Origin: a virus
Taxonomy: Duplodnaviria > Caudoviricetes
IMG/VR virus record: IMGVR_UViG_3300031555_004120
Location: 4,145-68,144 of that record
Reading direction: 5' to 3' (one strand)
Length of the DNA: 64,000 nucleotides
This document shows, piece by piece, positions 16,800 through 63,902 of the stretch. The notes below the pieces were generated by a model that was not told the DNA's origin, did no database searches, and saw nothing but the letters and a program-made list of their open reading frames with translations. Position 1 is the first letter of the stretch; each line of letters starts with the position of its first letter. A program made the position numbers and the translations under genes.

Positions 16800-17400
16800 G
16801 TAAAAATTAATCTGCTCATTTTTTCGTATAAGCATCAGATTAGGTATTATTATATAATATAATAGGATAACCACCATATATTATAGATAATTTTTTAAAT
16901 GGTAATTTAGTGAAGTAAACTACTAATAAAATAGTTGTTTAGAAATTCTAAATACCCTAAAGCACAGTAACTATAATGGGAGTTTTATCAAAATGATAAA
17001 AAATAGCTTAAAAGCGAGATCTAAATAGGTTTCTCATAGTAACTCTATTTCTAAATGATTTCTAAATAATGAAGAAACTACTATAAATACTGGATAAATT
17101 GATATTTTTAACTTTTTTAGCACAGTTAGTTTTTCTCGAAATTGATCGATTTTTAAAACAATTTTACTTCACTAAATTACCATTTTAAAAATAAAAATTT
17201 CGAGATGGCAAAAATTACCATATTTTTTCAAAAAATAAAAATTTGTAATTAGCCCATTTCTGGGCTAATTATGATTATTTTTTGAGTTACTGTGCTTTTT
17301 CAGAAAATTATTTAGAAAAACGGAGAAATGTTAAATCATTATTAAGAATTATTTATATTTATTAAAATTTTTTAACGAAATTTTATATAGTTACTTACAC
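16800..17400. other. AT-rich non-coding region with long inverted repeats (candidate replication origin or partition site)
   Basis: Perfect 23-bp inverted repeat at 16897-16919 and 17163-17185; 12-mer AGCACAGTAACT at 16961-16972 and inverted at 17285-17296; sits at a transcription divergence point. Confidence 0.45.
17331..17343 (-). repeat. Cassette site 1 (AATAATGATTTAA), followed by only an 11-codon frame
   Basis: One mismatch to the consensus; back-to-back with the site at 17422. Confidence 0.55.
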
Positions 17401-17421
17401 TGTAAAATTCTACCAATATAT

Positions 17422-17434
17422 AATAATGATTTAG
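17422..17434 (+). repeat. Cassette site 2 (AATAATGATTTAG)
   Basis: Exact consensus, preceded by TATAT. Confidence 0.85.
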
Positions 17435-17664
17435 TTGGTTATGATGGATCATTAAAAATACATGATATAATTGTATCTAAAGATAATGGAGAATCTTATA
17501 TTTCTTTAAATTATAATCCTGGAGGAATTGGCTATTTAATAGGTCAAGTAAATTCTAATGGATCTATAAGTAGAATTGTAATAGATGGAAACAAACTCAT
17601 ATTTCAATATTTTTCTGATATTTCAACTTTTGTTGGGCAAACAATTATAGCAGAAATTATATAA
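17422..17664 (+). other. Startless cassette A, 80 aa (NNDLVGYDGSLKIHDIIVSKDNG...QTIIAEII)
   Basis: Stop-free frame from the site; no ATG/GTG/TTG or RBS upstream in frame; its stop codon lies inside the next site. Confidence 0.7.
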
Positions 17665-17675
17665 TAATGATTTAG
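17663..17675 (+). repeat. Cassette site 3 (AATAATGATTTAG)
   Basis: Shares 18 identical nt (TATATAATAATGATTTAG) with site 2. Confidence 0.85.
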
Positions 17676-17950
17676 CATCAATTGCAGGTATGAATGATGG
17701 TATTAAACTTAGAGTAAAAACTGGAACAAATACTTTAACGTCAATATTTTCAAACTTAAATCCTCCAGCTATTTGTTTTTGTAGCACTGAGAATATAACA
17801 GATAAACCATCTGGAAAATATGGTACAGTTCTTATAATGAAAGCTTCAGATAATAGAATGAGTGCAATTTGTATTACTATAGACGGATTATGTTATATTA
17901 ATTCTTATAATACGTCTACTTCTGATTTAACTGGTTGGAAATCATTATAA
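17663..17950 (+). other. Startless cassette B, 95 aa, tail-fibre tip-like (NNDLASIAGMNDG...PSGKYGTVLIMK...LTGWKSL)
   Basis: The track ORF 17690-17950 extends in frame to the site; the internal ATG has no convincing RBS; P-x-G-x-Y-G...GW-K end is typical of phage fibre C-terminal domains. Confidence 0.75.
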
Positions 17951-18047
17951 TATAATATCCAGATAGGTTTTAAAACCTATCTGGGCTTTTACTTGTGAAT
18001 AATTTAATTTGATTATATATTATATTTATAGAAAGGAAAAGCAGTTT

Positions 18048-18521
18048 ATGATTTTTGATACTTATAAAGAAATTATAATTGAAGAAGATAGTATAAAAAA
18101 CCTACAGTATGTTTTACATATAAGAGACGACAAATCATTAGATATAGAACTATTAGATTTTAATAAAAAGTATTTTGGTTCTATAAATACCATTATTGCT
18201 AGAAATAAAGATGATGAATCTATAAAATGTATTTATATTGAAGATGTTAGAACTAACTATATTAACCAAGGAAATGGTACACTTTTATTACAAAGATTAA
18301 TTAAATATTGTAAAGAAAACGATATTGATTTTATTTATGGAAATTTATCCAGATTTGATTATGAAGATCACCAAGAAAGATTAATTCATTTCTATATAAA
18401 GAACGGTTTTGAAGTTCTTATATTTCCTAAAATAAGTAATAATGGAATCGATGTGGGTCAGATAAAATATAATGTAAAAGGTGGTGATAATAATGAAAAA
18501 GCTTATAGTAGGAAAGACTAA
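18048..18521 (+). CDS. GNAT-family acetyltransferase
   Basis: Acetyl-CoA-binding motif YINQGNGTLLLQRLI and LIHFYIKNGF; early-type promoter upstream. Confidence 0.75.
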   Translation: MIFDTYKEIIIEEDSIKNLQYVLHIRDDKSLDIELLDFNKKYFGSINTIIARNKDDESIKCIYIEDVRTNYINQGNGTLLLQRLIKYCKENDIDFIYGNLSRFDYEDHQERLIHFYIKNGFEVLIFPKISNNGIDVGQIKYNVKGGDNNEKAYSRKD

Positions 18522-24215: not shown

Positions 24216-24935
24216 ACTGAAAAAGTAGAAGATAGTATTGTTATATTTAAACTGTGTGTTATTAATATCCTGGTGCATAACTACAATACCATGTAATCCA
24301 GGGTGCCTCAATCTCATTCTTTTATAACTGATAGGGAACTAAAAGGGTGATTAGTATTAGCTATAATCAATGAAACTATACTAAGAATGGTCTAACAAGC
24401 TAAAGTGTTGAGGTAGCATAGACTAATATGATGCTAATGCATTCGATCTTTCCTATATAATAATAGACGCTTCCTGTGGAAGAATAATCCTTGGACCTAT
24501 AGGACGGTAGGCAACCGACTATAATAATAAGGAAATTGCCAAATATATAGTGCTCGTGACTGTTTATCTGAAAAGGTAAACTATAAGAAAGATCGTGAAG
24601 TTCGAGTAGCCCAATCGAGCATGAAAACATAATATATATGTTTTCGGTAGAGGACCGAAAGGATTGAACATATCTGAATGGTGGGTGAAAGTTGGGAGTA
24701 TCATTCTCCTTAGAGCAATGGGCAGATTTTTATCTGCTGCGGTGAAAAGTTTATAATCGACGGGTTATGGGCTCAGATTCATCGTCTCTATAGCATAACA
24801 AGTAGTAGTATTAGCGAGTAGGCTGAAGAGTCATTGATAATGCATGGTTTAAATGTAATAATATTATCCAATACTGATTCTAAAATATTTTTATAAATGA
24901 AATAAAGATTCCCATAGGAAGAGATTCCTATGGGA
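24216..24935 (+). ncRNA. Large structured non-coding RNA candidate (~720 nt; ROOL/GOLLD size class)
   Basis: No credible ORF; locally higher GC; AACA-N6-TA promoter at 24205-24216; 5'/3' end pairing (24234-24252 with 24847-24875); many hairpins; terminator at 24910-24935. Confidence 0.7.
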
Positions 24936-39636: not shown

Positions 39637-39641
39637 ATATT

Positions 39642-40423: not shown

Positions 40424-40436
40424 AATAATGATTTAG
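40424..40436 (+). repeat. Cassette site 4 (AATAATGATTTAG)
   Basis: Exact consensus with dyad arms CTAA-N7-TTAG. Confidence 0.85.
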
Positions 40437-40795
40437 CTAATTTAACTCAATGGGAAAAAATTGGTCCATATACAGGCAAAGTATCATCAGGAAGTTTAGG
40501 TATTGGAGTTGCAACTTCTGTTATGGAAGTTATTGTAGTTGCAAAATTACAAAATAATAATAATGTTATACTTTCTGTACATATACCTTATATATACAAT
40601 AGTACTAACAATACTTCTGGTACATCATATACAAAAATAAGAAGTGGATATTTTCAAAATGGTTCCAATGGAGGATATGCAGATTTTGCAATAAATGATT
40701 CTGGAAATTATATTCAACTTCATAATGCTTATTTAAATGGAAACGATGTATCTAGTTCTACAGTATGGGAAGTTTATTATCGTTATAAAATATAA
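40424..40795 (+). other. Startless cassette C, 123 aa, fibre-tip-like (NNDLANLTQWEKIG...VWEVYYRYKI)
   Basis: The track ORF 40523-40795 extends 33 codons in frame to the site; in-frame stops lie just upstream; no RBS. Confidence 0.75.
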
Positions 40796-48790: not shown

Positions 48791-48928
48791 ATTTCGTTAT
48801 ATGTTCAATAGGGAGAACGGTTGGCTGACACCCAGCAGAATTAAGAGAATTATGAGAGCTTAATCAAGACTTACCGGACAATGTCAAGTTTAGGTAGTAT
48901 AAGTGTGGTTCGATTCCACTAACGAAAT
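48791..48928 (+). ncRNA. tRNA-like RNA with GAC anticodon, 8-9/4 acceptor/T geometry and a ~68-nt variable region
   Basis: Acceptor ATTTCGTTA/TAACGAAAT; D arm GTTC-AATAGGGA-GAAC; anticodon arm GTTGG-CTGACAC-CCAGC; T arm GTGG-TTCGATT-CCAC; no encoded CCA. Confidence 0.65.
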
Positions 48929-48977
48929 ATTGATTACATAGATGATACTATATTAACTCATTTAAGGAGGAAAAAAG

Positions 48978-50084
48978 ATGAATGCATTATTGATTGGTGT
49001 TGGTGCAGCTGGAAATAAAGCAGTTGTAACAGCAATCGAAAACGGTACTATGAAAGTCGAGGATACAGCAATTGTAAACTCAACAAGTAGAGATTTCCCT
49101 AAAGAATATCAGGGAACAAAGATTATCTTATCTGCAACAGATACTGGTTGTGGTAAAGAGAGATCTGTAAGCAAGGCTTATACGAAGAAAGCTATCGGAG
49201 AAGGAAAGTTCAATTTCAATGAAAAGATGGCTCAGTATGCTACTGTTATTATTGTAACTTCTGTAGAAGGTGGAACAGGTTCAGGTGCTACTCCTACATT
49301 AGCTAAGTTCTTTAATAAAGTTTATACTAAGAACGTTCATATTATTGCTTTCACAGGCTTTGAAGATGATGTTAGAGGTCTTGCTAATACAGTAGATTTC
49401 TTTAAAGAAATTGATCCTGCTATTATTGTTCAGACTATCTCCAATGCATCTTTCTTACCTGCAGCTGGACAGAATAAGATGAAAGCAGAAGAATTGGCTA
49501 ACAGAGAAATGGCTGAAAGAGTAAGAGTTCTTATTGGTAAAGACTTCATTGATGGACGTCAGAATATTGATGATACTGATATCTTGAAGTTATCTAATAC
49601 TTCTGGTTATATGACCGTTGAAAAGAAGTGTTTTAGTAAATCTCTTGAAACTAGAGATGATTTTGAGAAGATTATCAAGAATATGATCTATAATACAGCT
49701 TCTATTAAGACGAGTGATCCTGCAGCTGTAAGACTTGGTGTTATTATGAATATCAGTCCTGCATCTGAAGATGCTATTGATGGTTCATTCAAGTCTCTTA
49801 AAGCAGCTTATGGTAATCCTTTTGAATTCTTTAGTCAGATTCAGTGGGATGGTAAAACAGAATATATTGCTTATATTGCATCCGGTATGAAGATGCCAAT
49901 TGAAGAGGTTCAGGCTGTATATGAAAGATATAAAGAACAGACAGCTAAGATTAATAAATCTGGTGATAGCTTCTTCTCTGCTATGGAAAGTATGGGAACA
50001 TTAGAGGAAGATTCTAAGTTCAATATGATTAAAGAAGTAGAGAAAGGTATGTCGATCGCAGATTTTCTTAGCGAAGATGACTAA
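48978..50084 (+). CDS. Tubulin/FtsZ-family GTPase (PhuZ/TubZ-like)
   Basis: IGVGAAGNKAV, GCGK, the signature EGGTGSGA and NIDDTD (T7 loop-like). Confidence 0.85.
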   Translation: MNALLIGVGAAGNKAVVTAIENGTMKVEDTAIVNSTSRDFPKEYQGTKIILSATDTGCGKERSVSKAYTKKAIGEGKFNFNEKMAQYATVIIVTSVEGGTGSGATPTLAKFFNKVYTKNVHIIAFTGFEDDVRGLANTVDFFKEIDPAIIVQTISNASFLPAAGQNKMKAEELANREMAERVRVLIGKDFIDGRQNIDDTDILKLSNTSGYMTVEKKCFSKSLETRDDFEKIIKNMIYNTASIKTSDPAAVRLGVIMNISPASEDAIDGSFKSLKAAYGNPFEFFSQIQWDGKTEYIAYIASGMKMPIEEVQAVYERYKEQTAKINKSGDSFFSAMESMGTLEEDSKFNMIKEVEKGMSIADFLSEDD

Positions 50085-50183
50085 TAATTAATGAGACAAG
50101 GTAGCTCCATTGCGTTATGAGGGGAGTATAGTTCGGTGATGTGGAGTGGGTTATTCCGAACAATGTTTATCAAGGAGGTTCCT

Positions 50184-51065
50184 ATGAGTTTATTTCCATC
50201 ATTAAATAAGGAAGATAAATCCTTAGATGAATTAAACAAATTGCAACAAGGTTCTCTATTTCATTCAATTGAATATGAATTATCTGATATTGTAAAGAAG
50301 ATAAAGAATATTGATAATTTGAATGAGGTAGAGATTAAACAAATCATCATAAGACAGCATTCTATGATATTAAACTATGATTTATTTTTAATGTCTAATG
50401 AAACTCGCCAGGATGCACAGACATTATTTATGAATGAAAAGTTCTTGAAATGTTTTTTAGATGTAATCAGACTTATTGAAATATCTGCCCATGAGAAAAT
50501 TTGTATCAATAAGCTCGCCTATGATTACTATATTAACCCATATGGATGTGATCCTAAAGTTTCAGACTTATTATATCAATTAACTACTGAAGTTAATGGT
50601 AAAGAAGTTATTGTTCTTAGTGGTATTCTTGGATTGCGAAATGCTCAAATTCTTAGCATGATAAGAAATTCTACTTTTAATATAGAGAAAGCTGTTCATC
50701 GTGTAAATACATTTCTGGTTAAATGTAATAATAATTTGAATATTACTAGTGTATCTAGTATATATTGTCATCTTTTTGAAAAATTTACAGATGTATTTAT
50801 ATATACAATGATGGAAGCTGAACCAATTGGATTGAACTTTGAACAAAAACAAAAGTTTGATCTAATATCTATTGTTATGCTTGAGATGATGAACTCTTTA
50901 TCGTGTGCTGATATTAGAAAAGTCTTATATGATTATGCTTTTATACTTAGTATGGTAAAAGTAGATACAAGAATAAGATTTGCTATTAGAACAGCAGAAA
51001 GATATAAGAGAGTTATTTCTGTTATTGAATCTATAGAGATTCAAGATAATTTGTATATACCGTAA
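50184..51065 (+). CDS. Hypothetical helical protein downstream of the tubulin gene
   Basis: Start refined to ATG 50184 (AGGAGG RBS). Confidence 0.6.
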   Translation: MSLFPSLNKEDKSLDELNKLQQGSLFHSIEYELSDIVKKIKNIDNLNEVEIKQIIIRQHSMILNYDLFLMSNETRQDAQTLFMNEKFLKCFLDVIRLIEISAHEKICINKLAYDYYINPYGCDPKVSDLLYQLTTEVNGKEVIVLSGILGLRNAQILSMIRNSTFNIEKAVHRVNTFLVKCNNNLNITSVSSIYCHLFEKFTDVFIYTMMEAEPIGLNFEQKQKFDLISIVMLEMMNSLSCADIRKVLYDYAFILSMVKVDTRIRFAIRTAERYKRVISVIESIEIQDNLYIP

Positions 51066-51203
51066 AATTAATACAGTTTTAATTGACAATAAGATTCTCC
51101 CTCTAGGATGATGAATCCTAGAGGGACTTTATTTTATTTTTTGATTATATAATATAAATATGTAAACAAATGATACTATACTAAAAAGAAAGGAAAAAAT
51201 TTT

Positions 51204-51650
51204 ATGGGTAATGATGTAATTATTATTGATATTCTTGATAAGGTTTTAGAACCTGAATTCTGGACAATGATGATGGAAAGGAAAAGGTACACTGGACATT
51301 TGTACAGAAATAGTCCTTATGAGTCTGATGATTCTTGTGGTAACTGTGATGGAGCAAGATGTGATACTTGTAAAGAGATTATTATTCCAGCAGATATCGA
51401 ATGTTCTATTAAATGTGATAAATTGGAACAAATGTTACTTGATAAGGATGCACCTAAAGATGTAGCTCAATATTTTACTTATGACGATAGTTGTAAAATG
51501 TATTATAAAGGATATCATTTTGTATTTCCAACTGCAAAAATGTTAAAATCACAGTATCCTGAAAAATATGAAGAAATTAAAACTGCATGTATTGAAAAAG
51601 ATCGCAAAGAAAGAGAAGAGATTCAGAAGCGATTTCCAAAGAAAGCTTAA
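51204..51650 (+). CDS. Hypothetical protein with a Cys cluster (CGNC...CDTC)
   Basis: 148 aa; early-type promoter. Confidence 0.55.
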   Translation: MGNDVIIIDILDKVLEPEFWTMMMERKRYTGHLYRNSPYESDDSCGNCDGARCDTCKEIIIPADIECSIKCDKLEQMLLDKDAPKDVAQYFTYDDSCKMYYKGYHFVFPTAKMLKSQYPEKYEEIKTACIEKDRKEREEIQKRFPKKA

Positions 51651-51845
51651 TATAAGTTAGAAGAAATTAGATATCTAATGGATAGTGTACATTGGAAATA
51701 ATGCTTTTATGCATTAAAGATCATATTGCTTATAAGATGAGACGACTATCTAAAAGATCTGTAACTTATTAACCCCAATTTGGTAATTAGGTATAATTAC
51801 CTAAGTAAGAGAAAGAAGTTAAGAAGTATTAGGAGGACTCGAACA

Positions 51846-52736
51846 ATGAATTTTATATCTAAAAAACTTGGTAGAAGATTAATATGTACTAGTTTTCTAT
51901 CAATAATGTTACTTTTCACATTTACTGCTGCGGTAACAACTAGCAAGGCTGAAGGAAGATATCCTGAACCTATTATAGTTGAAGCTGAAAAAATTACTTC
52001 AGAAGATATTATTATAAATAATGAAGTATCTCCAGTAATAGAATATGTATCAGAAGAAAATATTGTAGCAGAAGTTGTAGAACTTCAGCAAACTTTTTCT
52101 GCTCCTACTGAAACAATATTGTCAGAAGTTGTTATATCAGATGAAGAAAGATGGACTTCAATTTCCCATTCATGTGAATCTTATACAATGTTTGTAAATG
52201 TATCTGTAGACAGTTCTTTAAATGTAAGATCTCAAGCTATAATTGGTGATAACATTGTTGGTGGTTTACATTATGGAGATCAGGTAACTGTAGTTGGTTA
52301 CAATACATACGATCAATCATGGTCTGCTATTGAGTATAGAGATAAAATAGCTTTTGTATCCAATGAATATTTAGAAGAGTGGGTAGATTTATCTCTCCGA
52401 AAAGATGAAACTTATCATAATCCTGAGTGGGATGGAGAAACAAAATTAAATTCTAGAAATGGTAGAATTGAAGGTCCTAGTGGTCAGGAAACTTATTATA
52501 ATCTTCCAATGGGTACATGTGTTTATTATATGAACTTATTAGGATATGATTATGAAGTATGGGTTCGTGAAGATGGTGTTAAAATGTTTGGAGACTATAT
52601 TATGGTGGCTGCTAATTTGGAAACAAGACCGAAAGGTAGCTTGGTAGAAACTTCATTAGGAACAGGTATTGTTGTAGATACTGGTGAATTTGTAAATTGG
52701 AATCCAAATGGTATTGATATTGCAGTGACTTGGTAA
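51846..52736 (+). CDS. Exported SH3b plus 3D-like domain cell-wall protein
   Basis: N-terminal signal/TM helix; LNVRS...GDQVTVVG...W..I.Y...AFVSNEYL (SH3b); IMVAAN...KGSLVETSLGTGIVVDTG (3D-like). Confidence 0.65.
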   Translation: MNFISKKLGRRLICTSFLSIMLLFTFTAAVTTSKAEGRYPEPIIVEAEKITSEDIIINNEVSPVIEYVSEENIVAEVVELQQTFSAPTETILSEVVISDEERWTSISHSCESYTMFVNVSVDSSLNVRSQAIIGDNIVGGLHYGDQVTVVGYNTYDQSWSAIEYRDKIAFVSNEYLEEWVDLSLRKDETYHNPEWDGETKLNSRNGRIEGPSGQETYYNLPMGTCVYYMNLLGYDYEVWVREDGVKMFGDYIMVAANLETRPKGSLVETSLGTGIVVDTGEFVNWNPNGIDIAVTW

Positions 52737-52849
52737 AAAGTTTTTATATAAATAGTCCTAGAAGAGAAATCTTCTAGGACTAAAATTTTTATTTTTATAC
52801 ATCTCGATACAATACATTAATATGATACTATAAGAAACGAGGTTGTAAA

Positions 52850-53428
52850 ATGTCTAACAAATTACCAAAAACACCTGAACCTGAAGTTGATAAAGAAAAT
52901 TGTATAGATTGGAAAGCTATAGCTATTAATCAAGAAAAAGTCAGATTATCTTACGAGAGACAAAAAAGAAAAATTAAGATTTTTAATATTGTATGTATAG
53001 CTATCTCTATTATTTTATCAATTTTAGTTATATTTTTAGTTAGATATTGTAGACATAATATTGATAAACAAAGAGAATATCTTCAATCAGAATATGAAAC
53101 TTTTATAGAAGATGGTGTTACAATGACAAATGATGGTCTTATATACTTTGTAGCAAAAGTAAGAGATTTAGTAGTAGCACCAGCAATGGTAGGAGACAAT
53201 GTAATTAGCGGACCATCTACATATATCTATATTGTAGATTATGATGGTCATGTATTTTCAACAAAGTTTCATCCAGAGCTTTTATTACTTACAGATGGTT
53301 CATATATCAAAGTTTATTATAAACTAGAATATGTAGATGAAGTTTATATTGAACTTTCTGATTATGAAATATATGGTAACTTAGAAAATGAATATTATTT
53401 AAACGCGGAGGTCAATGGAAATGAGTAA
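52850..53428 (+). CDS. Single-pass membrane protein
   Basis: TM helix IFNIVCIAISIILSILVIFLV. Confidence 0.55.
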   Translation: MSNKLPKTPEPEVDKENCIDWKAIAINQEKVRLSYERQKRKIKIFNIVCIAISIILSILVIFLVRYCRHNIDKQREYLQSEYETFIEDGVTMTNDGLIYFVAKVRDLVVAPAMVGDNVISGPSTYIYIVDYDGHVFSTKFHPELLLLTDGSYIKVYYKLEYVDEVYIELSDYEIYGNLENEYYLNAEVNGNE

Positions 53429-54293
53429 TGAGAAAATTCAAGACACAGAAATTATTGGGGACAAAGCAGTAGATGTAGAAAATATAACTCCGTCTGCTTA
53501 TTTTGATTATGTCAAAGGTTTAAAGGAAAAATTAAATAGAGAAGAATATAATATCATTATTGATTCTGCACTTAAGATGATTGAGAAGTGTAAGATTACC
53601 AGACAGACTGCTATGGCTAAAGAATTAGCACATCAGGTTGATTTGGCTCTCAGAGAACTTAATGCTGCTAATGAAGGATTTGATATATTTGTTAATAGAA
53701 AAGTAATCGAAAAATATATTAGCGATGTAGAAGGAAAAGCTATCAAGATTATTGAACTCTCAGAATATACCAGAGAGATTCCGGAAGAAGTTATGGATAG
53801 AGTAGCGAAAGCTGCTGATATTTTTGATCAGATGTATATTGTCTTTACAGATTATACCAAAAAAGAGTCTAAGAGAGTAGCTAAAGAAAGAAGAGACAAG
53901 GATCCTATCTTATTTGGTGCATTTCAAGATAAACAAGGCGATGGTAAGAATAAAATCTATATCGAGGATAGATTATTCTTTATTGCTGACTGGGTTGATG
54001 ATACTTGTGATCTTACTCTTGAACAGATTGTAAGACAGACTCAGGGTAAATCTGATGAAGTTCTTACTTATAAGGTAAATACCCCTGAAGATTTTGAACA
54101 GGTTAAATCTTATTTGAATAGTTTCTCTAAGCCTATTGAAGAAGTTAAAGAGAGTGAGGTTATTAAACCTGTAAAACTTTTTGATAAGGTAAAAGCAGCT
54201 GCCAAGAAAGCTACTACAAGAAAGAAATCTACAACAGGTACAACTGGAGCGAAAAGAGGTAGAAAGAAGAAATCTGAAACGACGGAGGAATAA
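53415..54293 (+). CDS. Hypothetical protein with a Lys-rich tail
   Basis: 292 aa; DPILFG motif. Confidence 0.55.
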   Translation: MEMSNEKIQDTEIIGDKAVDVENITPSAYFDYVKGLKEKLNREEYNIIIDSALKMIEKCKITRQTAMAKELAHQVDLALRELNAANEGFDIFVNRKVIEKYISDVEGKAIKIIELSEYTREIPEEVMDRVAKAADIFDQMYIVFTDYTKKESKRVAKERRDKDPILFGAFQDKQGDGKNKIYIEDRLFFIADWVDDTCDLTLEQIVRQTQGKSDEVLTYKVNTPEDFEQVKSYLNSFSKPIEEVKESEVIKPVKLFDKVKAAAKKATTRKKSTTGTTGAKRGRKKKSETTEE

Positions 54294-54296
54294 TAT

Positions 54297-55469
54297 ATGG
54301 CTCTTGTAGAAGGTGATATTGACCTCACTCAAAATCTAGATTTTTACAGGAAGAAGCCCAAAAAGCTTCTTCCTGCTAATGTTAAACTTTTGGGTAGAGA
54401 TGATGTACCAGAGTCTAAATTAAATACTTCAATTGATAATCTTTATATTACTACTGTTTCTAGAAGTAGTGTGTCTATTAGTTATAGTAATACTAGCAAT
54501 TATCAAACAGTTCGTAGATGGACAATAAATAATAATAATAATGAAGAGTTTAACTATATAGATATAGATGATAGTACTATATCTAATAGTGATAATAATC
54601 TTTATATTACAAGCAGTAACTATAGTACAAGTATTACAACTACAATAAATAGTAGCAATACAACTTCTACCAGTTTTTCGATGAGATATATTTTGGATGA
54701 TAGTGATGAATTAGATTCTTGGATTACTACTAAGAAGAATTATAAGAGAAAATATAACTCTGCTATAGATACAGTAAAAAGAATATTTTCATTATGGGAT
54801 TCTAGAGACGTATTTGAAGAAAAAAGAAGTTTGGAAATTTATCAATGCGGTTGTGGAGCAGAATTTTTAGCTCCAAGAGATTTTTATGGTTGTTGCAAAA
54901 AATGTCTAAGGAACGAAGAACTTAAAAAGAAAGAAGAAATGTATGCTTCAAGAATCAGATATAATAGAATATTTCAATTCAGACATAAAAAGATCGTTGA
55001 TGATTATGACTATATAGGTGATGAAGTTCCCTGGCATAATACGGGTGAATCTTTCGGTATACCAAAACCTAGAAGTTCTATAGAAGCAAGATACTTTATG
55101 CTTTCTGGAAAGAATAATAGTACTCGTAGGTATGGTATTCCTTGGTTTCAAAATCTTAACCAAAGAATATATGATGATTATATTGATGAACTTAAAAATG
55201 GAGAGAAAGACTATAGTTCTTATCTTACAAATATGAGTTGGATAGGAATTCATAGACAAACAGATGATGAAGAGTTTATTGATTCTTTAAATCTTGAAAA
55301 CATAAGAGAAGTTTATACTGATGATGATTTTAGACCAGTCAATGTGATTCCTGATGAATATATCGAAGACGTTCCTTTATTTAGAGATGACAATCAAATT
55401 ACAATATCAAATGGTAGTGATTTATATTGGACTAACTCAGATCTTGAGACTATGGTATATAGTAGTTAA
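54297..55469 (+). CDS. Hypothetical protein with an S/T/N low-complexity region and a Cys cluster
   Basis: CGCG...CCKKC. Confidence 0.55.
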   Translation: MALVEGDIDLTQNLDFYRKKPKKLLPANVKLLGRDDVPESKLNTSIDNLYITTVSRSSVSISYSNTSNYQTVRRWTINNNNNEEFNYIDIDDSTISNSDNNLYITSSNYSTSITTTINSSNTTSTSFSMRYILDDSDELDSWITTKKNYKRKYNSAIDTVKRIFSLWDSRDVFEEKRSLEIYQCGCGAEFLAPRDFYGCCKKCLRNEELKKKEEMYASRIRYNRIFQFRHKKIVDDYDYIGDEVPWHNTGESFGIPKPRSSIEARYFMLSGKNNSTRRYGIPWFQNLNQRIYDDYIDELKNGEKDYSSYLTNMSWIGIHRQTDDEEFIDSLNLENIREVYTDDDFRPVNVIPDEYIEDVPLFRDDNQITISNGSDLYWTNSDLETMVYSS

Positions 55470-55568
55470 ACAATATGAAACCCGTAGGAGTTTGTAACTC
55501 CTACGGGTTTATTTTTTAGTTTTGATGACTTATTTTCATATTTGTTTTATCGTATACAATAATAGAGA

Positions 55569-56510
55569 TTAACTATTTCTATTGTCAGAATGATCACGAA
55601 CTTCCAGATCAAGATATCGATGTTCATAGAGATCCGCTAAATCTCCATTACCGTTATTATTACGATAATCTCTATATTTTACTCGAATCTTTTTATCTTC
55701 TGCTGGAGTTACATATCCTCTTGCAAGAGCAGCATAAATCATATCCTCAAGTTCAAACTTAATGTTATTCTTCATTAACGATTGCATGTTCTTGAGCATA
55801 GTATTCTGATCTTTTAATTCTTTTGTATGTCGTTCAAGAATAATAGATTGTTCCTTTTGTACATCAATAATTCTGTTTATTGTAGCCTCTATCTTCTTAC
55901 TATCCGATAAAGTTCCATCCTCACGCAAAACAAATTTATCATCTGTACCAGCTTCACCGTTATTGATATTAATATTAATTTCATTATGCTGATCAACCGG
56001 TTTCTTATTTTCTGACCCTTCATCATTATTAGTTTCATTTAATGGATTTTTTAATAGTTTATACTTTGATTCATGTTTTAACAAGAATTCTGTATCAAAC
56101 CATATTGATGCTAAAAATCCCACCAAAGGAGCTACAACAATATTCCATATAATGACAATCTCGTCAGAATTAGCCAATTTTACCAATAAATAACAAACCA
56201 AAAAAGCGAAAATATAACATAAAGATAGATGAGCAACAACATATGTTTTGTATCTATTAAATAGTTTCTTTCCTTCATTCTTGGATGTATCGATATCGGC
56301 ACTCTTGATATACATTGCAAATCGTGCAATAAAACAAATTAATAAGAAAATTAGATTAAGTACAAAATGTGTGCTATTATATTGAGCAGAATTAATCTTG
56401 TCAAAGAAATGAACAACAACATCTTCAGCTTCACCTATATTTCCATCTATGTTTACACTAGCAACCGCCATCAAATTAGCTAATGTAAAATTGCTAACTG
56501 GATTAATCAT
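55569..56510 (-). CDS. Holin-like membrane protein
   Basis: Start refined to ATG 56510; about 3 TM helices, a coiled coil and C-terminal GYVT...YRDYRNNNGNG...LY, as in phage holin-associated proteins. Confidence 0.5.
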   Translation of the reverse strand: MINPVSNFTLANLMAVASVNIDGNIGEAEDVVVHFFDKINSAQYNSTHFVLNLIFLLICFIARFAMYIKSADIDTSKNEGKKLFNRYKTYVVAHLSLCYIFAFLVCYLLVKLANSDEIVIIWNIVVAPLVGFLASIWFDTEFLLKHESKYKLLKNPLNETNNDEGSENKKPVDQHNEINININNGEAGTDDKFVLREDGTLSDSKKIEATINRIIDVQKEQSIILERHTKELKDQNTMLKNMQSLMKNNIKFELEDMIYAALARGYVTPAEDKKIRVKYRDYRNNNGNGDLADLYEHRYLDLEVRDHSDNRNS

Positions 56511-56626
56511 ATCATATATTATCCTCCTTTGTGAGTATTTTGATCGATTAATGTCGTTTATTATATAAAAGTTAACCATAAAAGATGCTCTTAGAGGTTA
56601 CCCTCTAAGAGCAACAATTTTGATAT

Positions 56627-56944
56627 TTATAACGGAGAGTAAACAGATGTAATCTGTCTAACAAGATTTTCAAGTGTATTCATACGCTCATACATTTCAG
56701 CAGGCTGATCCAATACACCTTTAATATTAGAAATATCATTATTGATGATACTGTTGCAGATTGATTCGACAGTCTCAATTTTGCTATATTTTCTTACTCT
56801 TACTTCTTCAAGTTTAATATCAATAATTCCACACTCTTTAACAATGAAGACATTAGTTGTATTAGTTTCAATAGAATCCAAAGTATTAGTAATATCTACC
56901 ATCAATGTATCAAAAGTGATTTCAGGAGTTGTTATTCCTTCCAT
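56627..56944 (-). CDS. Hypothetical protein
   Basis: Start refined to ATG 56944. Confidence 0.5.
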   Translation of the reverse strand: MEGITTPEITFDTLMVDITNTLDSIETNTTNVFIVKECGIIDIKLEEVRVRKYSKIETVESICNSIINNDISNIKGVLDQPAEMYERMNTLENLVRQITSVYSPL

Positions 56945-57124
56945 GATTGTTAACCATCCTTTCTTATGATTATATTTAATAAAAAGTGCTTTATAGAAAA
57001 ATGTAAAAATTGCAATTTTCAATTATATACTATAATTATGAATAAAGATACATATTACTTAAGATGATATCTTATTCACAAATGATACTCTTAAACAATA
57101 TAAAGAAAAACGGAGGAAAATAAT

Positions 57125-57799
57125 ATGAAGATTATTATGAGTATTAAGGAAATGGCAGCATTAGCAGGAGTAGCGAAACAGTTTGATGAAATTATTAATC
57201 CTAAGGACCAGAAGAGAACAGTTCAGGATATGATCACTCAGATGATCAATGATTTCAAGGAACCAGAGAAGCATAGCTTCTTTAGTATGAAGTTGGATTC
57301 TGAAATGAATCTGGTAGTAGAGTGTGAGGCAGATGCAGTTGCTAAGTTACTTGGAATTTTTAAAGACTTTGTTTCTACAATGTATCCTCTATATAAGGCA
57401 GCATGTGAATGTGGTGCAAGTTTTGGTCAGCGTATTCAGGAAGTAGTTGATGAATATAAGGAACCTGAAAAGGAAGAAGATCATCCTGTACCAGCAGCAG
57501 TTGTTGTAGTTACCAGAGGAGCAAAAGTTCCTGATGAAGAAAGCTTCGAAGAGAGATTTGCTAGAACGCAGGAAGAAATCAACGCAGCTCATAAAGAAAT
57601 GGAAGAAAGAAGAGCTGCATTCGAAAAAGCACATGCTGAAAGAACCAAGGAGATTGACAGAGCAGTTAAGAAAATGAGAAATAAATACAAGAAAGATTTT
57701 AAGTGCAATAAGTGCGGCAGAAATGCCAAGCTGGATCCTTTAGCAAATAATCATACTTGTAAGAATTGCGGTTCTACGATGGTTCAGATTTTTCAGTAA
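57125..57799 (+). CDS. Hypothetical early protein with a C-terminal Zn ribbon
   Basis: CNKC...CKNC; TATACTAT promoter variant at 57026-57033. Confidence 0.55.
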   Translation: MKIIMSIKEMAALAGVAKQFDEIINPKDQKRTVQDMITQMINDFKEPEKHSFFSMKLDSEMNLVVECEADAVAKLLGIFKDFVSTMYPLYKAACECGASFGQRIQEVVDEYKEPEKEEDHPVPAAVVVVTRGAKVPDEESFEERFARTQEEINAAHKEMEERRAAFEKAHAERTKEIDRAVKKMRNKYKKDFKCNKCGRNAKLDPLANNHTCKNCGSTMVQIFQ

Positions 57800-57861
57800 T
57801 AATATAAGGCTAGGTTGAAATATACCTAGCCTTTATTTTTAAAATTTAGGAGGGAAAAATA

Positions 57862-58506
57862 ATGAAGATTGAAGAATTGAAGAGAATGTATACTGGTGAT
57901 GAAACTAATAATTATTATGAGGTATCTACTCCTCAGAAGACAGAGCATGGATATCTTGTAGACAATCTTAAAGATGGTACAATGACTGAAATTTATAATC
58001 TTGAATATCAGAAGTCAAAATATCATCAGGAAGGATTGACAGAGCATATTGCATTGGTAGCTCACAAGATGCATCAGATGACTATGTTTACATCAAGAAA
58101 ACAGAATAGAATAGCGGTAGCAATTGCTATTCTTCATGATCTTGGTAAGAAGTTTACTATCAAGATCAATCAGGTTGGCGATGTGTGTTATTGGAATCAT
58201 GAATCATTATCTGCCAATCTTGCAAGAGATTTTCTGTTAACTCATAACGATGATGGTCACTTTACAGATGAAGAGATCAATATGATCTTTATTATCATCC
58301 ATCAGCATCTTCAGTTAAAATTAATCAAAGATGAAATTGCCAGAAGATGTTATATAGAGGGATTCAAGAAGATATATGGAGCAGAAGCATATGATTATCT
58401 TGAGCTGCTTGATCAGGCAGATCAGGGTTATCCAGAAGGAACAGAAATTGATTATAATTACATCAATGAGGGATTCTCTATTATTGAGGATTACTTATAT
58501 TTTTAA
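57862..58506 (+). CDS. HD-domain phosphohydrolase
   Basis: YHQE...EH, ILHDLGK, WNHESLS, HQH and QAD motifs. Confidence 0.8.
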   Translation: MKIEELKRMYTGDETNNYYEVSTPQKTEHGYLVDNLKDGTMTEIYNLEYQKSKYHQEGLTEHIALVAHKMHQMTMFTSRKQNRIAVAIAILHDLGKKFTIKINQVGDVCYWNHESLSANLARDFLLTHNDDGHFTDEEINMIFIIIHQHLQLKLIKDEIARRCYIEGFKKIYGAEAYDYLELLDQADQGYPEGTEIDYNYINEGFSIIEDYLYF

Positions 58507-58519
58507 GGAGGAAAACAAT

Positions 58520-58831
58520 ATGGCAAATTTAAACGAAATGCGAGAATTGAAAAACGTGGTGGAGCAGATAATGTCAGATAAAGATCTGGCGAAAGAAATT
58601 TATAATGAAGCTGATAAGTTATTAGAAATGAAGCTTCATAATGCCGGATTGTCTGCTGTGAGAGGAAACTATAATAGCAAAGATATACAAGAAGCTAGAG
58701 CTGCATATTATTTACAAGATTTGATACATGCTGTTATAATCTATATGGAGGATGGAAATTCGTCAACTATAACAATGAATGACGAATTATATCCTAATGC
58801 AGAGAAACCGGATTGGGCAGAAGAAGATTAA
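58520..58831 (+). CDS. Hypothetical protein
   Basis: Start refined to ATG 58520 (AGGAGG RBS). Confidence 0.55.
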   Translation: MANLNEMRELKNVVEQIMSDKDLAKEIYNEADKLLEMKLHNAGLSAVRGNYNSKDIQEARAAYYLQDLIHAVIIYMEDGNSSTITMNDELYPNAEKPDWAEED

Positions 58832-58875
58832 AAATTAGGGGTTAGCCATTACAGCTAACCCCTTAGATTTATTTT

Positions 58876-59196
58876 TTATATTGCATGATAATAAATACAA
58901 TAATTTGCTACTCTAGCAGAATCTGAAGGTTCCATTTCACAATAATCTTTCCAAGAATAAAGAGCATCCATTCTATAATCGAAACTTTCATCAACACATC
59001 CGTTAATATCATAATATTCATCTTCAATCTTACATATAAAATGATTTTCAATAGGAAGATAATATATTTCTCCATTGAAAACTGTATGTAAGATATGAGC
59101 AAACCAATAACAGTTTCCATTGTTAAAAGCATACTCAATTTCTTTTTTGGATATGTGTTTATAGTTATTGATAAATTTTAAAACCTTTTCTTTCAT
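58876..59196 (-). CDS. Hypothetical protein (GNCYWFA motif)
   Basis: 106 aa with GGAGG RBS; a C...H...D pattern could indicate a papain-like fold. Confidence 0.5.
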   Translation of the reverse strand: MKEKVLKFINNYKHISKKEIEYAFNNGNCYWFAHILHTVFNGEIYYLPIENHFICKIEDEYYDINGCVDESFDYRMDALYSWKDYCEMEPSDSARVANYCIYYHAI

Positions 59197-59248
59197 AATA
59201 TCTCCTCCAGAATATTAATTATTCTAAAGTATAAAATATATAAAGTTA

Positions 59249-59944
59249 TTAAGAATAAGCTATTTGTGAATTTACTATCCATAAAATAGTAATTGTATAG
59301 TCTTGAGTAACTTCTCCAATAGCTCTAACAATCATATTTCCTGTATTATTAATAGGACCATTTGTTACAAGTCTTGTATTCCAGTCAATAGATGGAACGC
59401 ATGATGTCATAATTCCTAATTGTACACCTCTTAGAGATAATCCTTCTGTAATAACAGGTGTACAAATTATTGGTTTATCAATATTTGGTGTTAAATTTTG
59501 TACTCTATAAGTATATTCACAGCATATAACATTTCCAAATGCTCCAAATCCATTGGATATATCAAAAGCAATATTACTACTTCCATCTAAATAACAAGTT
59601 TGATTTCCTATAGTTATAGAGACAGGATTGGTAAATTTATTACAATATTCTGAAGTTCCATCGAAATAATATCCTCCCCAAATTCCTTTATTATAAAGAT
59701 CTATTTCCATATGAGTTGATGCACCATTTACTTTTGAAGTACCATCAGCTGAATCTATACCTATAAAACGTAATAAACCATTATAATTATCTATACATAT
59801 TCCACTAATATTCTTAGATTTAGAACATGCATCTAATCTTAATTCTCCACCTTCACTACTAGTACCTTGTGGACTTATAGACAAATTACCAGCAAATAAT
59901 TTAGCATTAGTATTTGCTGGTAATTTATTAGCTAAATCATTATT
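59249..59944 (-). other. Cassette D, 231 aa, tail-fibre C-terminal region (NNDLANKLP...EGGELRL...ITIGNQTCYLDGSSNI...)
   Basis: Site at 59932-59944; only TTG/GTG codons 4-5 codons upstream, with no good RBS; contains the fibre-type ITIG...(F/L)DGS.NI motif. Confidence 0.75.
59932..59944 (-). repeat. Cassette site 5 (AATAATGATTTAG)
   Basis: Exact consensus, preceded by AATATT. Confidence 0.85.
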
Positions 59945-60003
59945 AATATTATACACCAAAAATCACTTCGTTATAATAAGATTGATTTAAAAGGAGAATT
60001 ATA

Positions 60004-60864
60004 ATGGATAAAACAATAAAAGGGAAATTGGTATCTGAAGAATTAAGAAAAAAGATTAAAGAAGAAGTTGACTTTATAAAAGAATCAAACAAAGAAGATA
60101 TTACTTTGGCAATTATTCAAGTTGGAGATGATCAAGCTTCTTCTACATATGTCAGAAATAAAACTAAAGCTTGTAATGAAGTCGGTATCAAATACTGTGA
60201 TTATAAGATGGATAAATATATAGATTCGTCTGATATTATAAATCTCATTAAACAATTAAATGCTTCCGAAGACATAACAGGTATATTGGTACAATTGCCC
60301 CTACCTCGTCATATTGATGAAGCTAAAGTTTTACAAAGTATAGATCCGCTAAAGGATGTAGATTGTTTCAATTATTCCAATATAGGAAGATTATATACAG
60401 GTAATCCTAGATTCTTACCTTGCACTCCTGCTGGAATTATCGAATTATGTAAGTATTATAATATCGAACTTGCAGGAAAAGAATGTGTAATAATAGGTAG
60501 ATCTAATATTGTAGGTAAACCATTAGCAGCGATGATGACTGCTCAAAATGCTACAGTTACATTAGCTCATTCTAAAACAGAAAATTTAGAAGAAGTATGT
60601 AAACGAGCTGATATTATTGTATCTGCAATTGGTTGTGCTAAGTTTATTAATAAAGATTATATTAAACCTGGAGCTGTAATTATAGATGTAGGTATCAATA
60701 GAGATCATAATAATAAACTCTGTGGAGATGTTGATTTTGATGATGTTTATGATATTTGTGATTGTATAACTCCCGTACCTGGTGGAGTTGGTCCTATGAC
60801 TATAACTATGCTTTTAAGAAATTGCATTAAAGCTTATAATTATCAAATTAGTATTGAAGATTAG
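60004..60864 (+). CDS. folD: Bifunctional methylenetetrahydrofolate dehydrogenase/cyclohydrolase
   Basis: YVRNK, GILVQLPLP, KDVD, PCTPAG, GRSNIVGKP, DVGINR and TPVPGGVGPMT motifs. Confidence 0.95.
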   Translation: MDKTIKGKLVSEELRKKIKEEVDFIKESNKEDITLAIIQVGDDQASSTYVRNKTKACNEVGIKYCDYKMDKYIDSSDIINLIKQLNASEDITGILVQLPLPRHIDEAKVLQSIDPLKDVDCFNYSNIGRLYTGNPRFLPCTPAGIIELCKYYNIELAGKECVIIGRSNIVGKPLAAMMTAQNATVTLAHSKTENLEEVCKRADIIVSAIGCAKFINKDYIKPGAVIIDVGINRDHNNKLCGDVDFDDVYDICDCITPVPGGVGPMTITMLLRNCIKAYNYQISIED

Positions 60865-60873
60865 GAGTATAAT

Positions 60874-61851
60874 ATGTTTGCAAATACATTAATTTATGAA
60901 AACGATGGTCAAGTAAATATATCAGAGGGTATAAAATATATAGATCAAACTATCACAAATTATCTATATGCTACCAAGATCAAATTATCACTTGCTATTA
61001 TTTATATTATGGATGATAATGGGGAATATGAATATACTGTAAGGGAAATGAAAAAGATAATAGAATCTCATGGGATAAAAGTAGATTGTTTTAATTATGA
61101 TACTGATACTAAAACAGATATTATTATTAATAAAATTGAAGAATGTAATAAATCATATACTGGTATCTATATCGTAAATCTTAGAAAGTCTGTATATGAT
61201 ATTAGATATTTTAGAAATCTTATTAATAAAGATAAATGTATTGATGGTTATCATGAATCTAATATTGCAGATATGATATTCTATGATTATGATACTTATC
61301 ATGACTATTTCTATCCACCTGATGTATTTTTGGTCAGAAAAATACTTGAAAATATGGATAGTGATAAAAAGATTAATGTTACTAGGGTTAGCAAGATATT
61401 AATTTTGGAAGATTTTAAAAAAGTTAATCCTAGTATGAAAATATTAAGTACTATATTATCACATTCTGGTTTACCATCTATGTATTACCAGTACTCCTCT
61501 AATAATACCGCTTTAACAGAATATCTTAAAGAAGCTGATATTATAATAGCAGATATTGATGCTGCAAGATATTTAAAATTTGATATGATACATGATCCAG
61601 AGTATCTAGTTGAAAGAGATAGAGTTGTTATAGATCTTGGATGTAAAAGAGAAGGATGTAAAACTCATGGTAATCTTGATCTAAAGAGTATGAAAGAGAA
61701 TAATACAATTTTATCAGAAAATGGTTGGACTCCTGTTAGATTTGTAGAATCTAAAGATATGTATAATATTACTTTGATATCTGATTGTTTAATTAATAAT
61801 TTGATTATTGCTTATCATAAACAAAATGAAGATACATATCCGTTGAAATAA
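60874..61851 (+). CDS. Degenerate FolD paralog
   Basis: Collinear with FolD (LAII, KCIDG, EADIII, VIDLG) but the YxxxK and GRS motifs are lost. Confidence 0.65.
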   Translation: MFANTLIYENDGQVNISEGIKYIDQTITNYLYATKIKLSLAIIYIMDDNGEYEYTVREMKKIIESHGIKVDCFNYDTDTKTDIIINKIEECNKSYTGIYIVNLRKSVYDIRYFRNLINKDKCIDGYHESNIADMIFYDYDTYHDYFYPPDVFLVRKILENMDSDKKINVTRVSKILILEDFKKVNPSMKILSTILSHSGLPSMYYQYSSNNTALTEYLKEADIIIADIDAARYLKFDMIHDPEYLVERDRVVIDLGCKREGCKTHGNLDLKSMKENNTILSENGWTPVRFVESKDMYNITLISDCLINNLIIAYHKQNEDTYPLK

Positions 61852-61930
61852 TGAACTGCTTAGATAATATATTTTTTATAATTTATGACTATAAACACAA
61901 GTAATTAATATAAAACTCGGAGGTATTATT

Positions 61931-63058
61931 ATGCTTAAAAAGAAAGCAAACGAAAATGTGTTTAATGGCTATCCTTCTAAGTTGTTAAAACAAAGACCAT
62001 TTTTCTCGATCATTATTCCATGTTATAATAGTGCTAAAACTCTCGGAACATTGTTACAGTCTATTGTAGCTCAGAATATGAATGATGAAATTGAAGTTAT
62101 TCTTGCAAATGATCATTCTCCCGAATCATATCAGAAGGTAGTTGATAAGTTTAAGGATACTTTATCCATTCGTCAGATTATGACTGACTATAATTTTGCT
62201 CCCGGAAATACGAGAGAAAAAGGTGTTAGTATTGCAGAAGGTGAATGGGTTACATTTGCTGATCATGACGATGAATATATTCCAGATACTTTTAAAGAAG
62301 TCAAACGAAGAATATTAGAATCAGGAGAAGATCAGTTTGTAGTTACAGATTTTTATGAAATGGATCCTGATACAAGAGAAATTATTAGAGAAATGAGAGG
62401 TTATCGTAATTGGATGCATGGTAAGTTCTATTCTCTTGATAATTTCTGGAAGAAGTATGATATTCATTTTAAGAAAGATTTGTTAACTCATGAGGATATT
62501 TGTGTATCATCTCAGTGCAATTCAGCTGCACATTTAAGTGGTAAAGAACCATCATATTTCGAAATATTTACTTATTGCTGGATGAGTAGACCTACTACAA
62601 TATCTAGAGAAAAATATGGTGATCATGGATTTTTGGAAGTATTTTTCAAAGATTATATAGAATCTACTGGTTATACATATTTCAATTTCTATAAGAAACA
62701 TAATATGCCTATAGAGTTTGGTTTTACATCAACTGTAGAGGTGTTGGTATATTGTTATATGTATATGCAGGGTATCAAGTTCCATCATCCTGATAACTGG
62801 ATAAGAGAGAATGAAAATTATTGTAGAGAGTATTTGATAATGATTAAAGAAGAATTTGGTGCTACTAATAAAGATATTTGGAATTATGTAGCAGCAGATG
62901 ATGCAAGAGTCTTTATGGAAGTTCAGGAGCCTGCTCATATGGGGGTTGGACCTTGGATTGAATCAGAAACTTTCTCTCAATGGTTGGATATGCTTCATAA
63001 AGATATTCCGGTAAGAACTACAATGTCAGAAGCAATGCGAAAAGAAAATATGAGATAA
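61931..63058 (+). CDS. GT2-family glycosyltransferase
   Basis: SIIIPCYN, ILANDHS, GNTREKG, FADHDD (DxD) and HED motifs. Confidence 0.85.
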   Translation: MLKKKANENVFNGYPSKLLKQRPFFSIIIPCYNSAKTLGTLLQSIVAQNMNDEIEVILANDHSPESYQKVVDKFKDTLSIRQIMTDYNFAPGNTREKGVSIAEGEWVTFADHDDEYIPDTFKEVKRRILESGEDQFVVTDFYEMDPDTREIIREMRGYRNWMHGKFYSLDNFWKKYDIHFKKDLLTHEDICVSSQCNSAAHLSGKEPSYFEIFTYCWMSRPTTISREKYGDHGFLEVFFKDYIESTGYTYFNFYKKHNMPIEFGFTSTVEVLVYCYMYMQGIKFHHPDNWIRENENYCREYLIMIKEEFGATNKDIWNYVAADDARVFMEVQEPAHMGVGPWIESETFSQWLDMLHKDIPVRTTMSEAMRKENMR

Positions 63059-63101
63059 AATTATCCCAGTAGACTGATAAAGTCTACTGGGGCATTTATT
63101 T

Positions 63102-63404
63102 TTAAATTAAATAAGTTGTACAAATACTAAATCCAGTGATATTTTCCATAAAGAAAACTTTTAATATACCGGATGTTTCTATTCCACAATAACCAACAAC
63201 AAAACGATCAGCTACTTGTGCAATTGCGAGAAATTGTAGTCCATTTTTTGGACATATATCAGTAGATAATGTACATATTGTAGTCCATGTTTTTGCCTGT
63301 ATATTAATATTACTAATAACTACAGCAATGGTAACTGCATTTCTACATTTAAATGTTCTTATACCTGACATGGGAACAGAAATTTCTACAGCTAAATCAT
63401 TATA
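63102..63404 (-). other. Startless cassette E, 100 aa, fibre-tip-like (YNDLAVEISVPMSG...WTTICTLSTDICPKN...TTYLI)
   Basis: The track ORF 63102-63371 extends in frame to the site at 63392-63404; an in-frame stop lies 5 codons upstream of the site. Confidence 0.75.
63392..63404 (-). repeat. Cassette site 6 (TATAATGATTTAG)
   Basis: One mismatch; back-to-back with site 7, 6 bp apart. Confidence 0.8.
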
Positions 63405-63410
63405 AATATT

Positions 63411-63423
63411 AATAATGATTTAG
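63411..63423 (+). repeat. Cassette site 7 (AATAATGATTTAG)
   Basis: Exact consensus, preceded by AATATT. Confidence 0.85.
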
Positions 63424-63902
63424 TTGATTATAGTAATGGTACTAAGATAGTAGGTAAAGCTACTAGTGCTACATCAGCATTATATTGTGGAAGTGCTGGA
63501 AGTGCTGGTAAAGCTACTTCTGCTACTAGTGCTAGATATGCTACTACAGCTACTAATGCTGGTACATCTAACTATGCTAAGAATGCTCCTACTTATCAAG
63601 GTGCTACTACTGCAGCTGCTGGTGTAAAAGGATTAGTACCTGCAGCTACTACTGCAACTAAAGATAACTTTTTAAGAGGTGATGGTACGTGGGCTACACC
63701 TAGTAAAGCTACTAGTGCAACATCAGCAACATATTCATCTACTGCTAATTATGCTAAGAATGCTGGTACTGCTAGTTATTCTAGCAATGGTGCAAAAGCT
63801 AGTTCTGCTACATCTGCTACATATGCAGCTACTGCTAATTATGCTAAGAAGAGTAATATTAGTATGAGTGTATCTGGTACTACTCTTACTATTACATTTT
63901 AA
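63411..63902 (+). other. Startless cassette F, 163 aa, tail-fibre C-terminus (not in ORF track)
   Basis: NNDLVDYSNGTKIVGKATSATSA... with A-T-S-A repeats, the fibre motif GLVPAA.....FLRGDGTW and the end ISMSVSGTTLTITF; no start codon between the upstream stop (63393-63395) and the site. Confidence 0.85.

Follow-up and report, generated by a model that had tools for sequence, protein, structure and literature searches.

How can a phage make use of open reading frames (ORFs) that have no beginning? This question is raised by a Caudoviricetes genome fragment, the IMG/VR virus record IMGVR_UViG_3300031555_004120, in which we analyzed a window of 64 kb (64,000 nucleotides, positions 4,145 to 68,144) of the 68,144-bp contig. 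Six frames in this window, lying on both strands, open directly behind copies of one 13-nt motif, WATAATGATTTAR, and have no recognizable translation start. We argue here that this 13-mer is very probably the crossover site of a multi-site, shufflon-type system that swaps the C-terminal, presumably receptor-binding, part of a tail fiber. CheckV estimates the contig to be 26% complete, so the whole genome should measure ~260 kb, and the expressed fiber gene would begin elsewhere in it, outside the window.

The initial annotation of this DNA had claimed seven intergenic copies of the motif, a number far above chance, and our count bears this out position by position: there are seven exact matches against 0.14 expected, and none of 100 shuffles reached seven. 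The copies, which we also write in the form TAATGATTTAG, span positions 17331 to 63423, a distance of more than 46 kb, and the genes for the capsid, sheath, DNA polymerase, and tubulin, among others, lie between them. The site itself shuts two reading frames (TAA TAA TGA and ATG ATT TAG), and the third (AAT AAT GAT TTA G) stays open through it, encoding NNDL. TTA accounts for only 32% of the Leu codons of this phage, yet the site is kept letter for letter, which argues that it is a nucleic acid signal and not merely the peptide NNDL. We found no dyad symmetry of ~26 bp at single sites, which have no conserved left arm on their 5' side; such symmetry is present only where two sites, E and F, abut. 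These stand back to back (13 + 6 + 13 bp) around a 6-bp spacer in a nearly palindromic arrangement, which becomes a perfect palindrome in the relative L132.

The window holds six silent tips, which we letter as cassettes A to F, and one stub (Table 1). Our frame analysis and BLAST comparisons agree with the earlier description of six start-less frames of 80 to 231 codons in one register whose products are unrelated, as BLAST detected no mutual similarity among the six products. Among the stop-to-stop frames of at least 70 codons in the 68-kb contig, once opposite-strand shadows had been excluded by eye, the start-less ones were those led by the site. ATG, GTG, and TTG are absent near the site in five of the six frames (the first in cassette F falls at codon 151); cassette D has TTG/GTG 4 to 5 codons 5' of its site, with no Shine-Dalgarno sequence there or in any other of the six site-led frames. 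The domain found in cassette D is common within long fiber proteins. Alignments of cassette C with its relatives begin at the first residue after the site, and this conservation indicates that the frames are coding from the site onward. An AlphaFold model of cassette C is all-beta, with a mean predicted local distance difference test score (pLDDT) of 57.8, too weak for a fold search. A tblastn search with cassette D against cultured phages found no relatives, IMG/VR look-ups with cassette D and with the YunG-like gene that comes after it gave no match, and no "longer" homologues of cassette C were found. From the missing starts and ribosome-binding sites, we infer that unjoined cassettes are untranslated and silent in place. 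Fiber-domain homology and position in the protein suggest that the tips bind receptors, and they presumably set host range.

If the cassettes are endings, there must be a beginning. The initial annotation had found no acceptor gene in the window and had proposed a search for a fiber gene carrying the site in frame as NNDL. Such a gene exists, and it was located only outside the window, in the three contigs L178, L181, and G006. The acceptor is a 124-codon fiber N-terminal module with its own AGGAGG ribosome-binding site and ATG; in L178 it is laid out as AAAAAGGAGG...ATG, starts with MASYLRPRRGKK..., ends in ...NYNSQLTTL, and continues in frame through NNDL. We gathered contigs by way of neighboring ordinary genes, so that their retrieval was independent of cassette state. 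Among the contigs with the glycosyltransferase gene (61931-63058), the window arrangement is present in nine of ten places; L178 (ENA ERZ27248351) differs, carrying beside this gene a gene of 224 amino acids (aa) instead of 89. L178 is 100.000% identical to window positions 61561-63403 over 1,843 nt, a match that ends inside site E, and past this point the head module runs in frame into cassette E to give the 224-aa fusion. A 141-aa gene with the Mtd_N fiber N-terminal domain lies 5' of the module. In L181 (Logan SRR27608079), the module and the 141-aa gene ahead of it are those of L178 (99.93% identity over 1,434 nt) but the tip is a different one (439 aa), and the homology between the two contigs stops just after the site. 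In G006 (IMG/VR, 64,927 bp), which overlaps the right end of the 68-kb contig by 195 nt at 100% identity, a 100% identical module stands on a third tip. Genes of 141, 121, and 365 aa and a collagen-like fiber gene lie 5' of the G006 module, three more silent cassettes lie 3' of its expressed tip, and a small gene bearing a ribosome-binding site comes after the expressed tip and after at least two of the silent ones.

The module is matched by 187 database proteins of 218 to 571 aa; most of the 120 matches listed cover its whole length, and most of the module proteins examined among them diverge right after L-NNDL. The 71 tips that we parsed from the matches listed fall into 50 similarity groups, so that related genomes do carry different tips behind one N terminus, as had been proposed for checking.

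These fusions bear directly on an alternative scenario in which the start-less ORFs are stand-alone genes expressed in place, the motif is a promoter-proximal or translation-start signal, and the fusions are by-products. We regard this scenario as highly improbable. The frames have no ATG, GTG, TTG, or Shine-Dalgarno sequence, whereas the other genes of this phage have strong ones, typically with ribosome-binding sites of the AGGAG type; cassettes C and B and a cassette of one relative offer no near-cognate codon either between the upstream stop and the site; and heads that carry a ribosome-binding site and ATG are found fused in frame to tips, and in large numbers. What speaks for stand-alone expression is a −10-like WATAAT box inside the site, the terminators around cassettes C and A-B, and the complete relative G003, whose 33 start-less ORFs often follow a terminator and TATAAT and for which no acceptor was found. 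Several unconventional starts were tried and rejected, as none fitted all sites: an AR9-like promoter, a leaderless transcript, a frameshift from the in-site ATG, reiterative transcription on TTT, termination-reinitiation, and trans-splicing or leader priming. Now that fused forms have been found, such explanations are unnecessary.

The geometry of the exchange can be read from a further contig. In L192 (sample ERZ27248370), window positions 38124-40435 (+) are joined to 17344-13590 (−), with 100% identity in both parts and a 13-nt overlap that is the site. Since opposite strands are joined at the oppositely oriented sites 40424(+) and 17331(−), this is one junction of a 23-kb inversion (17344-40423), and the site at 17331(−), whose 17344→13590 side is used in the junction, functions in crossover. 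The same sample also yielded L202, in which flank, site, and cassette C are still joined as in the parental form, so recombinant and parental forms coexist: the left flank of site C is joined to cassette C in L202 and other contigs and to the 17331 side in L192. L178 takes the first base of the site from the head side and L192 takes the 13th from the 17331 side, which places the exchange within site positions 2-12, ATAATGATTTA. The recombination partners share only 13 to 16 nt of identity. Recombinant junctions, which the initial annotation had named as a test, are thus present in assemblies at 100% identity both in L178 (module to cassette E) and in L192 (40424 with 17331). That annotation had left the choice between site-specific recombination and gene conversion; recombination at the site is upheld by both contigs, and because the single event with readable geometry is an inversion, gene conversion is not needed.

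Could these junctions be artifacts of assembly at a 13-nt repeat? They do fall exactly on repeated sequence, where assemblers can mis-join, but we consider this explanation extremely unlikely. The k141_... contig names, which we take to be MEGAHIT names, imply a final word length of 141, far above 13 nt; the head-to-tip architecture recurs in the independent pipelines of ENA, Logan, and IMG/VR; and all of the fusions are in frame, with the many database proteins that match the module as further witnesses.

A different challenge is that strains recombined rarely in the course of evolution, through homologous or illegitimate events at a short conserved linker, and that the junctions are traces of this and not of a programmed switch. 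Both flanks of the parental and recombinant contigs, however, match the window at 100% identity, so these contigs come from the same strain, and both forms occur within sample ERZ27248370. The same 11 to 13 nt are used in every event, the site is exact in each cassette against codon usage, and 13 nt is a very short substrate for general homologous recombination. Rare recombination is unlikely in our judgment, even though no recombinase was seen in 133 kb, most assemblies have a single arrangement (9/10 for E/F and 9/10 for the guanylate kinase/C junction), and flanks differ in more distant strains too (L198 and L137). Flanks are permuted among strains in L198 and G006. An invariant C locus in ~21 contigs was considered as a counterargument and dropped, as that look-up was keyed to the truncated silent product and was blind to fused forms.

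We propose a scheme in which the head module, with its ribosome-binding site, ATG, 124 codons, and presumably its own promoter, would be the sole translatable beginning, and the cassettes would be promoter-independent, start-less endings. Recombination in the 11-nt core would join the head in frame to the cassette behind the partner site. Some sites point one way and some the other, and tens of kilobases separate them, so large stretches of ordinary genes can be turned around in a switch; the E/F double site looks as two parked cassettes would once an inversion of this kind had taken place. A single step would not suffice for cassettes arranged in direct tandem, of which A-B and the array that trails the head in G006 are examples. 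By analogy with the Rin shufflon discussed below, the exchange is probably catalyzed by a dedicated site-specific recombinase, an arm-less Xer-like tyrosine invertase.

Several observations weigh against a programmed switch of this kind. The initial annotation had reported no visible recombinase, and profile searches agree: the 68-kb contig and G006, which together represent 133 of the ~260 kb, contain no match to either the tyrosine (PF00589) or the serine (PF00239) recombinase family. Cassette E is the only one of the six window cassettes found fused to the acceptor, and some cassettes, being in direct tandem, are out of one-step reach for a simple invertase. Because the cassettes come with terminators and TATAAT-like boxes of their own, they may be transcribed where they lie. 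Every junction comes from assembled contigs, none from read-level or long-read data, and for the 23-kb inversion we recovered no reciprocal junction. Contigs of two DNA and two RNA runs aligned to positions 44001-64000 had no joint at a site, and the RNA contigs, which do not cover cassettes D, E, and F, are uninformative on expression. Scans of viral and metagenome contigs for junction patterns gave no match, near-identical records being probably outside the scan, and the only matches in a scan of IMG/VR with a 15-mer were in-frame NNDL occurrences due to chance.

A broader version of the switch can also be envisioned, in which the whole ~260-kb genome is a set of interconvertible isomers and a promoter-plus-N-terminus head is moved by a trans-acting recombinase over at least 20 sites; to us, the chances that this version is right or wrong look evenly balanced. 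Were it true, each host-range switch would at the same time flip essential genes over tens of kilobases, and many gene orders would exist at once within single phage populations.

Table 1. Coordinates of the crossover sites, cassettes, and other features in the window
Feature	Position	Strand	Remarks
Copies of WATAATGATTTAR	17422, 17663, 40424, 63411	+	
Copies of WATAATGATTTAR	17331, 59932, 63392	−	
Stub	17308..17343	−	Site copy AATAATGATTTAA, 11 codons (NNDLTFLRFSK), then terminator hairpin 17246-17271
Site A and cassette A	17422..17664	+	80 codons, no start; stop inside site B
Site B and cassette B	17663..17950	+	95 codons; then terminator 17958-17985
Site C and cassette C	40424..40795	+	123 codons; terminators 40230-40254 and 40803-40831 on either side
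Site D and cassette D	59249..59944	−	231 codons; common fiber domain with EGGELxL motif
YunG-like gene	58876-59196	−	Bears a ribosome-binding site; comes after cassette D
Site E (TATAATGATTTAG) and cassette E	63102..63404	−	100 codons; found silent and acceptor-fused
Site F and cassette F	63411..63902	+	163 codons; fiber-type repeats with GLVPAA...FLRGDGTW
Small gene after cassette F	from 63918		Bears a ribosome-binding site; begins MSIKVNGTEIP
Eighth 11-mer copy, TATAATGATTTAC	31902-31914	−	In frame (YNDL, ~residue 534) in 964-aa ORF
964-aa ORF	30618-33512		5' of capsid gene
Large terminase	6844-9084	−	746 aa; profile matches split (residues 13-225 and 450-588)
ROOL RNA	24245-24851	+	Rfam RF03087, 221 bits, full length
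Transfer RNA (tRNA)-like gene	48793-48927	+	Rfam tRNA model, 36.9 bits; anticodon loop CTGACAC

The closest described system is the Rin shufflon of Bifidobacterium breve and Bifidobacterium longum prophages, which comprises a constant N-terminal part of a receptor-binding protein (Rc) and several variable C-terminal genes (Rv) that have no start, stand behind an asymmetric 11-bp rix each, and are inverted by an arm-less Xer-like tyrosine enzyme (Mavrich et al. 2018, PMC6109161). Here, too, we find a constant N-terminal part with its own start that ends at the site, start-less variable C-terminal cassettes that each stand behind the same short asymmetric site, and inversion with the crossover inside the site (one junction seen); the mapped crossover interval of 11 nt (site positions 2-12) compares with the 11-bp rix. 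Rin, however, is a single compact locus between Rc and rin in a temperate siphovirus, whereas the sites of the present system extend over at least 46 kb of a lytic-type jumbo myovirus, between genes for structure and replication, 23 kb are flipped, and no recombinase was seen beside any site. The Min (p15B), Gin (Mu), and Cin (P1) systems likewise swap fiber C termini by DNA inversion at in-frame sites, and their variable parts precede a small assembly gene, as cassettes D and F precede small genes bearing ribosome-binding sites. Min, Gin, and Cin are Hin-family serine invertases that act at ~26-bp dyad sites, with an enhancer, on one contiguous segment (summarized in PMC6109161); by contrast, PF00239 has no match in the 68-kb contig and G006, and dyad symmetry is confined to the abutting E/F sites.

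The R64/IncI1 pilV shufflon (Rci) shares with our system the use of multiple inversions to join a constant N terminus to one of several C-terminal segments, and conservation in its asymmetric sites is limited to one arm. It differs in serving a plasmid pilus adhesin through 19-bp sfx sites in a contiguous 1.9-kb region with rci adjacent, whereas ours serves a phage fiber and is dispersed. Contact-dependent growth inhibition (CDI)/Rhs systems store orphan CT cassettes, start-less C-terminal sequences that stand behind a conserved junction motif and are recombined into the main gene (PMC3482391). The storage of start-less endings behind a conserved junction motif is common to both. CDI/Rhs cassettes lie in direct arrays beside the main gene and recombine by general homologous recombination over longer shared stretches; no such long homology was found here, where the partners have 13 to 16 nt in common and an inversion was seen. 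In function, then, the present system is a shufflon of the Rin/Min/R64 type, but without the compact locus common to all of those systems.

To our knowledge, tail-fiber shufflons are known only as small self-contained loci. Our literature search found no paper pairing "jumbo phage" with "shufflon," and the earlier claim that no dispersed system has been described holds within the literature searched. What we describe is shufflon logic distributed over the genome of a lytic-type jumbo phage, where cassettes sit between genes for capsid, tail, and replication and where a switch flips 23 kb. If this proves general, the host-recognition potential of such phages would be far above what their annotation suggests, with start-less tips missed or truncated by gene callers; genome order would be fluid within populations; and metagenomic assemblies would tend to break at such sites. 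The 11- to 13-nt site, together with a defined head module, provides a handle for reading which tip is in use in a sample.

An eighth, 11-mer copy of the site core at 31902 is probably a chance occurrence, ~0.5 such copies being expected from an estimate based on base composition. The 964-aa ORF that contains it was rejected as an acceptor: the 11-mer is taken as chance, and no joint or alternative flank was seen, no test having been aimed at 31902. A tblastn search with this ORF against cultured phages found no relatives.

More cassettes lie past the window end (L171, L174, L177, and G006), with the next site ~380 nt beyond. Strains diverge right at the contig end within the MSIKVNGTEIP... 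gene, which has 128-aa and 171-aa versions (63918-64000 and beyond); paralogues of this gene come after other cassettes, and it is possibly a tip-specific assembly factor. In a ~98% identical strain from run X7, cassette D is nearly all deleted (window 59304-59932): 51 nt beside the site are lost without a frameshift, 41 nt remain, and 5 nt stand in place of 537 nt, and homology picks up again exactly at 59933, inside site D.

Other jumbo phages present related arrangements. The complete 271-kb relative G003 (IMGVR_UViG_3300045988_139374, loci L145-L158) has 33 exact copies of TGACGCTTCT, a motif that it has in common with G001 and G002. Each copy in G003 opens a start-less ORF of 20 to 302 codons, mostly 60 to 170, beginning x-D-A-S-[INT]-K.... 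These ORFs stand mostly in tandem arrays, often directly behind a terminator and TATAAT, and at 16 of 20 tandem junctions the upstream ORF stops in the TGA frame of the motif. G003 encodes an Xer-like tyrosine recombinase at 158972-159967, 2.3 kb from a cassette, and a search of G003 for an in-frame acceptor found none. G005 (loci L160-L170; e.g., 54610, 55223, 55505, and 164749-166860) contains, in ~14 copies, a structured repeat (GTTCAACGACTATCGAAAGG, preceded by CAATCAGCAGC) that resembles group I intron cores; some of these copies precede start-less ORFs. The crossover site of the window was not found in five jumbo relatives with a 50%-identical capsid protein.

The ordinary genes of the window encode a tail sheath, a major capsid protein, a large terminase, a divergent family-B DNA polymerase, ThyX, a tubulin, an endolysin, and a guanylate kinase, and the window DNA is present in many cattle-gut and fecal metagenomes. 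AR9/PBS1-like jumbo phages of Staphylococcus have a distantly related capsid protein (25% identity). As for hosts, the 63%-identical head-plus-tip protein P0150 is encoded on a 289-kb contig labeled by NCBI as an Acholeplasmatales metagenome-assembled genome, a label that points, if only weakly, to the host group of this phage clade. The promoter patterns of AR9 are AT-rich-N6-G (early) and AACA-N6-TA (late) (PMC5312081), and late strings of the AR9 type precede the structural genes of the window; another AACA-N6-TA string, at 24205, lies ahead of the ROOL RNA. A second promoter-like motif, ATGATA(C/T)T(A/T)TA, distinct from the strings of the structural genes, occurs at 33617, 42170, 48942, 51170, 52822, and 57082 (+), 25 to 35 nt 5' of the ribosome-binding sites of nonstructural genes (tubulin and others). 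The split profile matches of the large terminase suggest an insertion between its ATPase and nuclease parts. Lastly, the tRNA-like gene has an insertion of ~66 nt after its anticodon arm and is not called by ARAGORN; metatranscriptome contigs cover its region (48559-49286 and 48778-48926).

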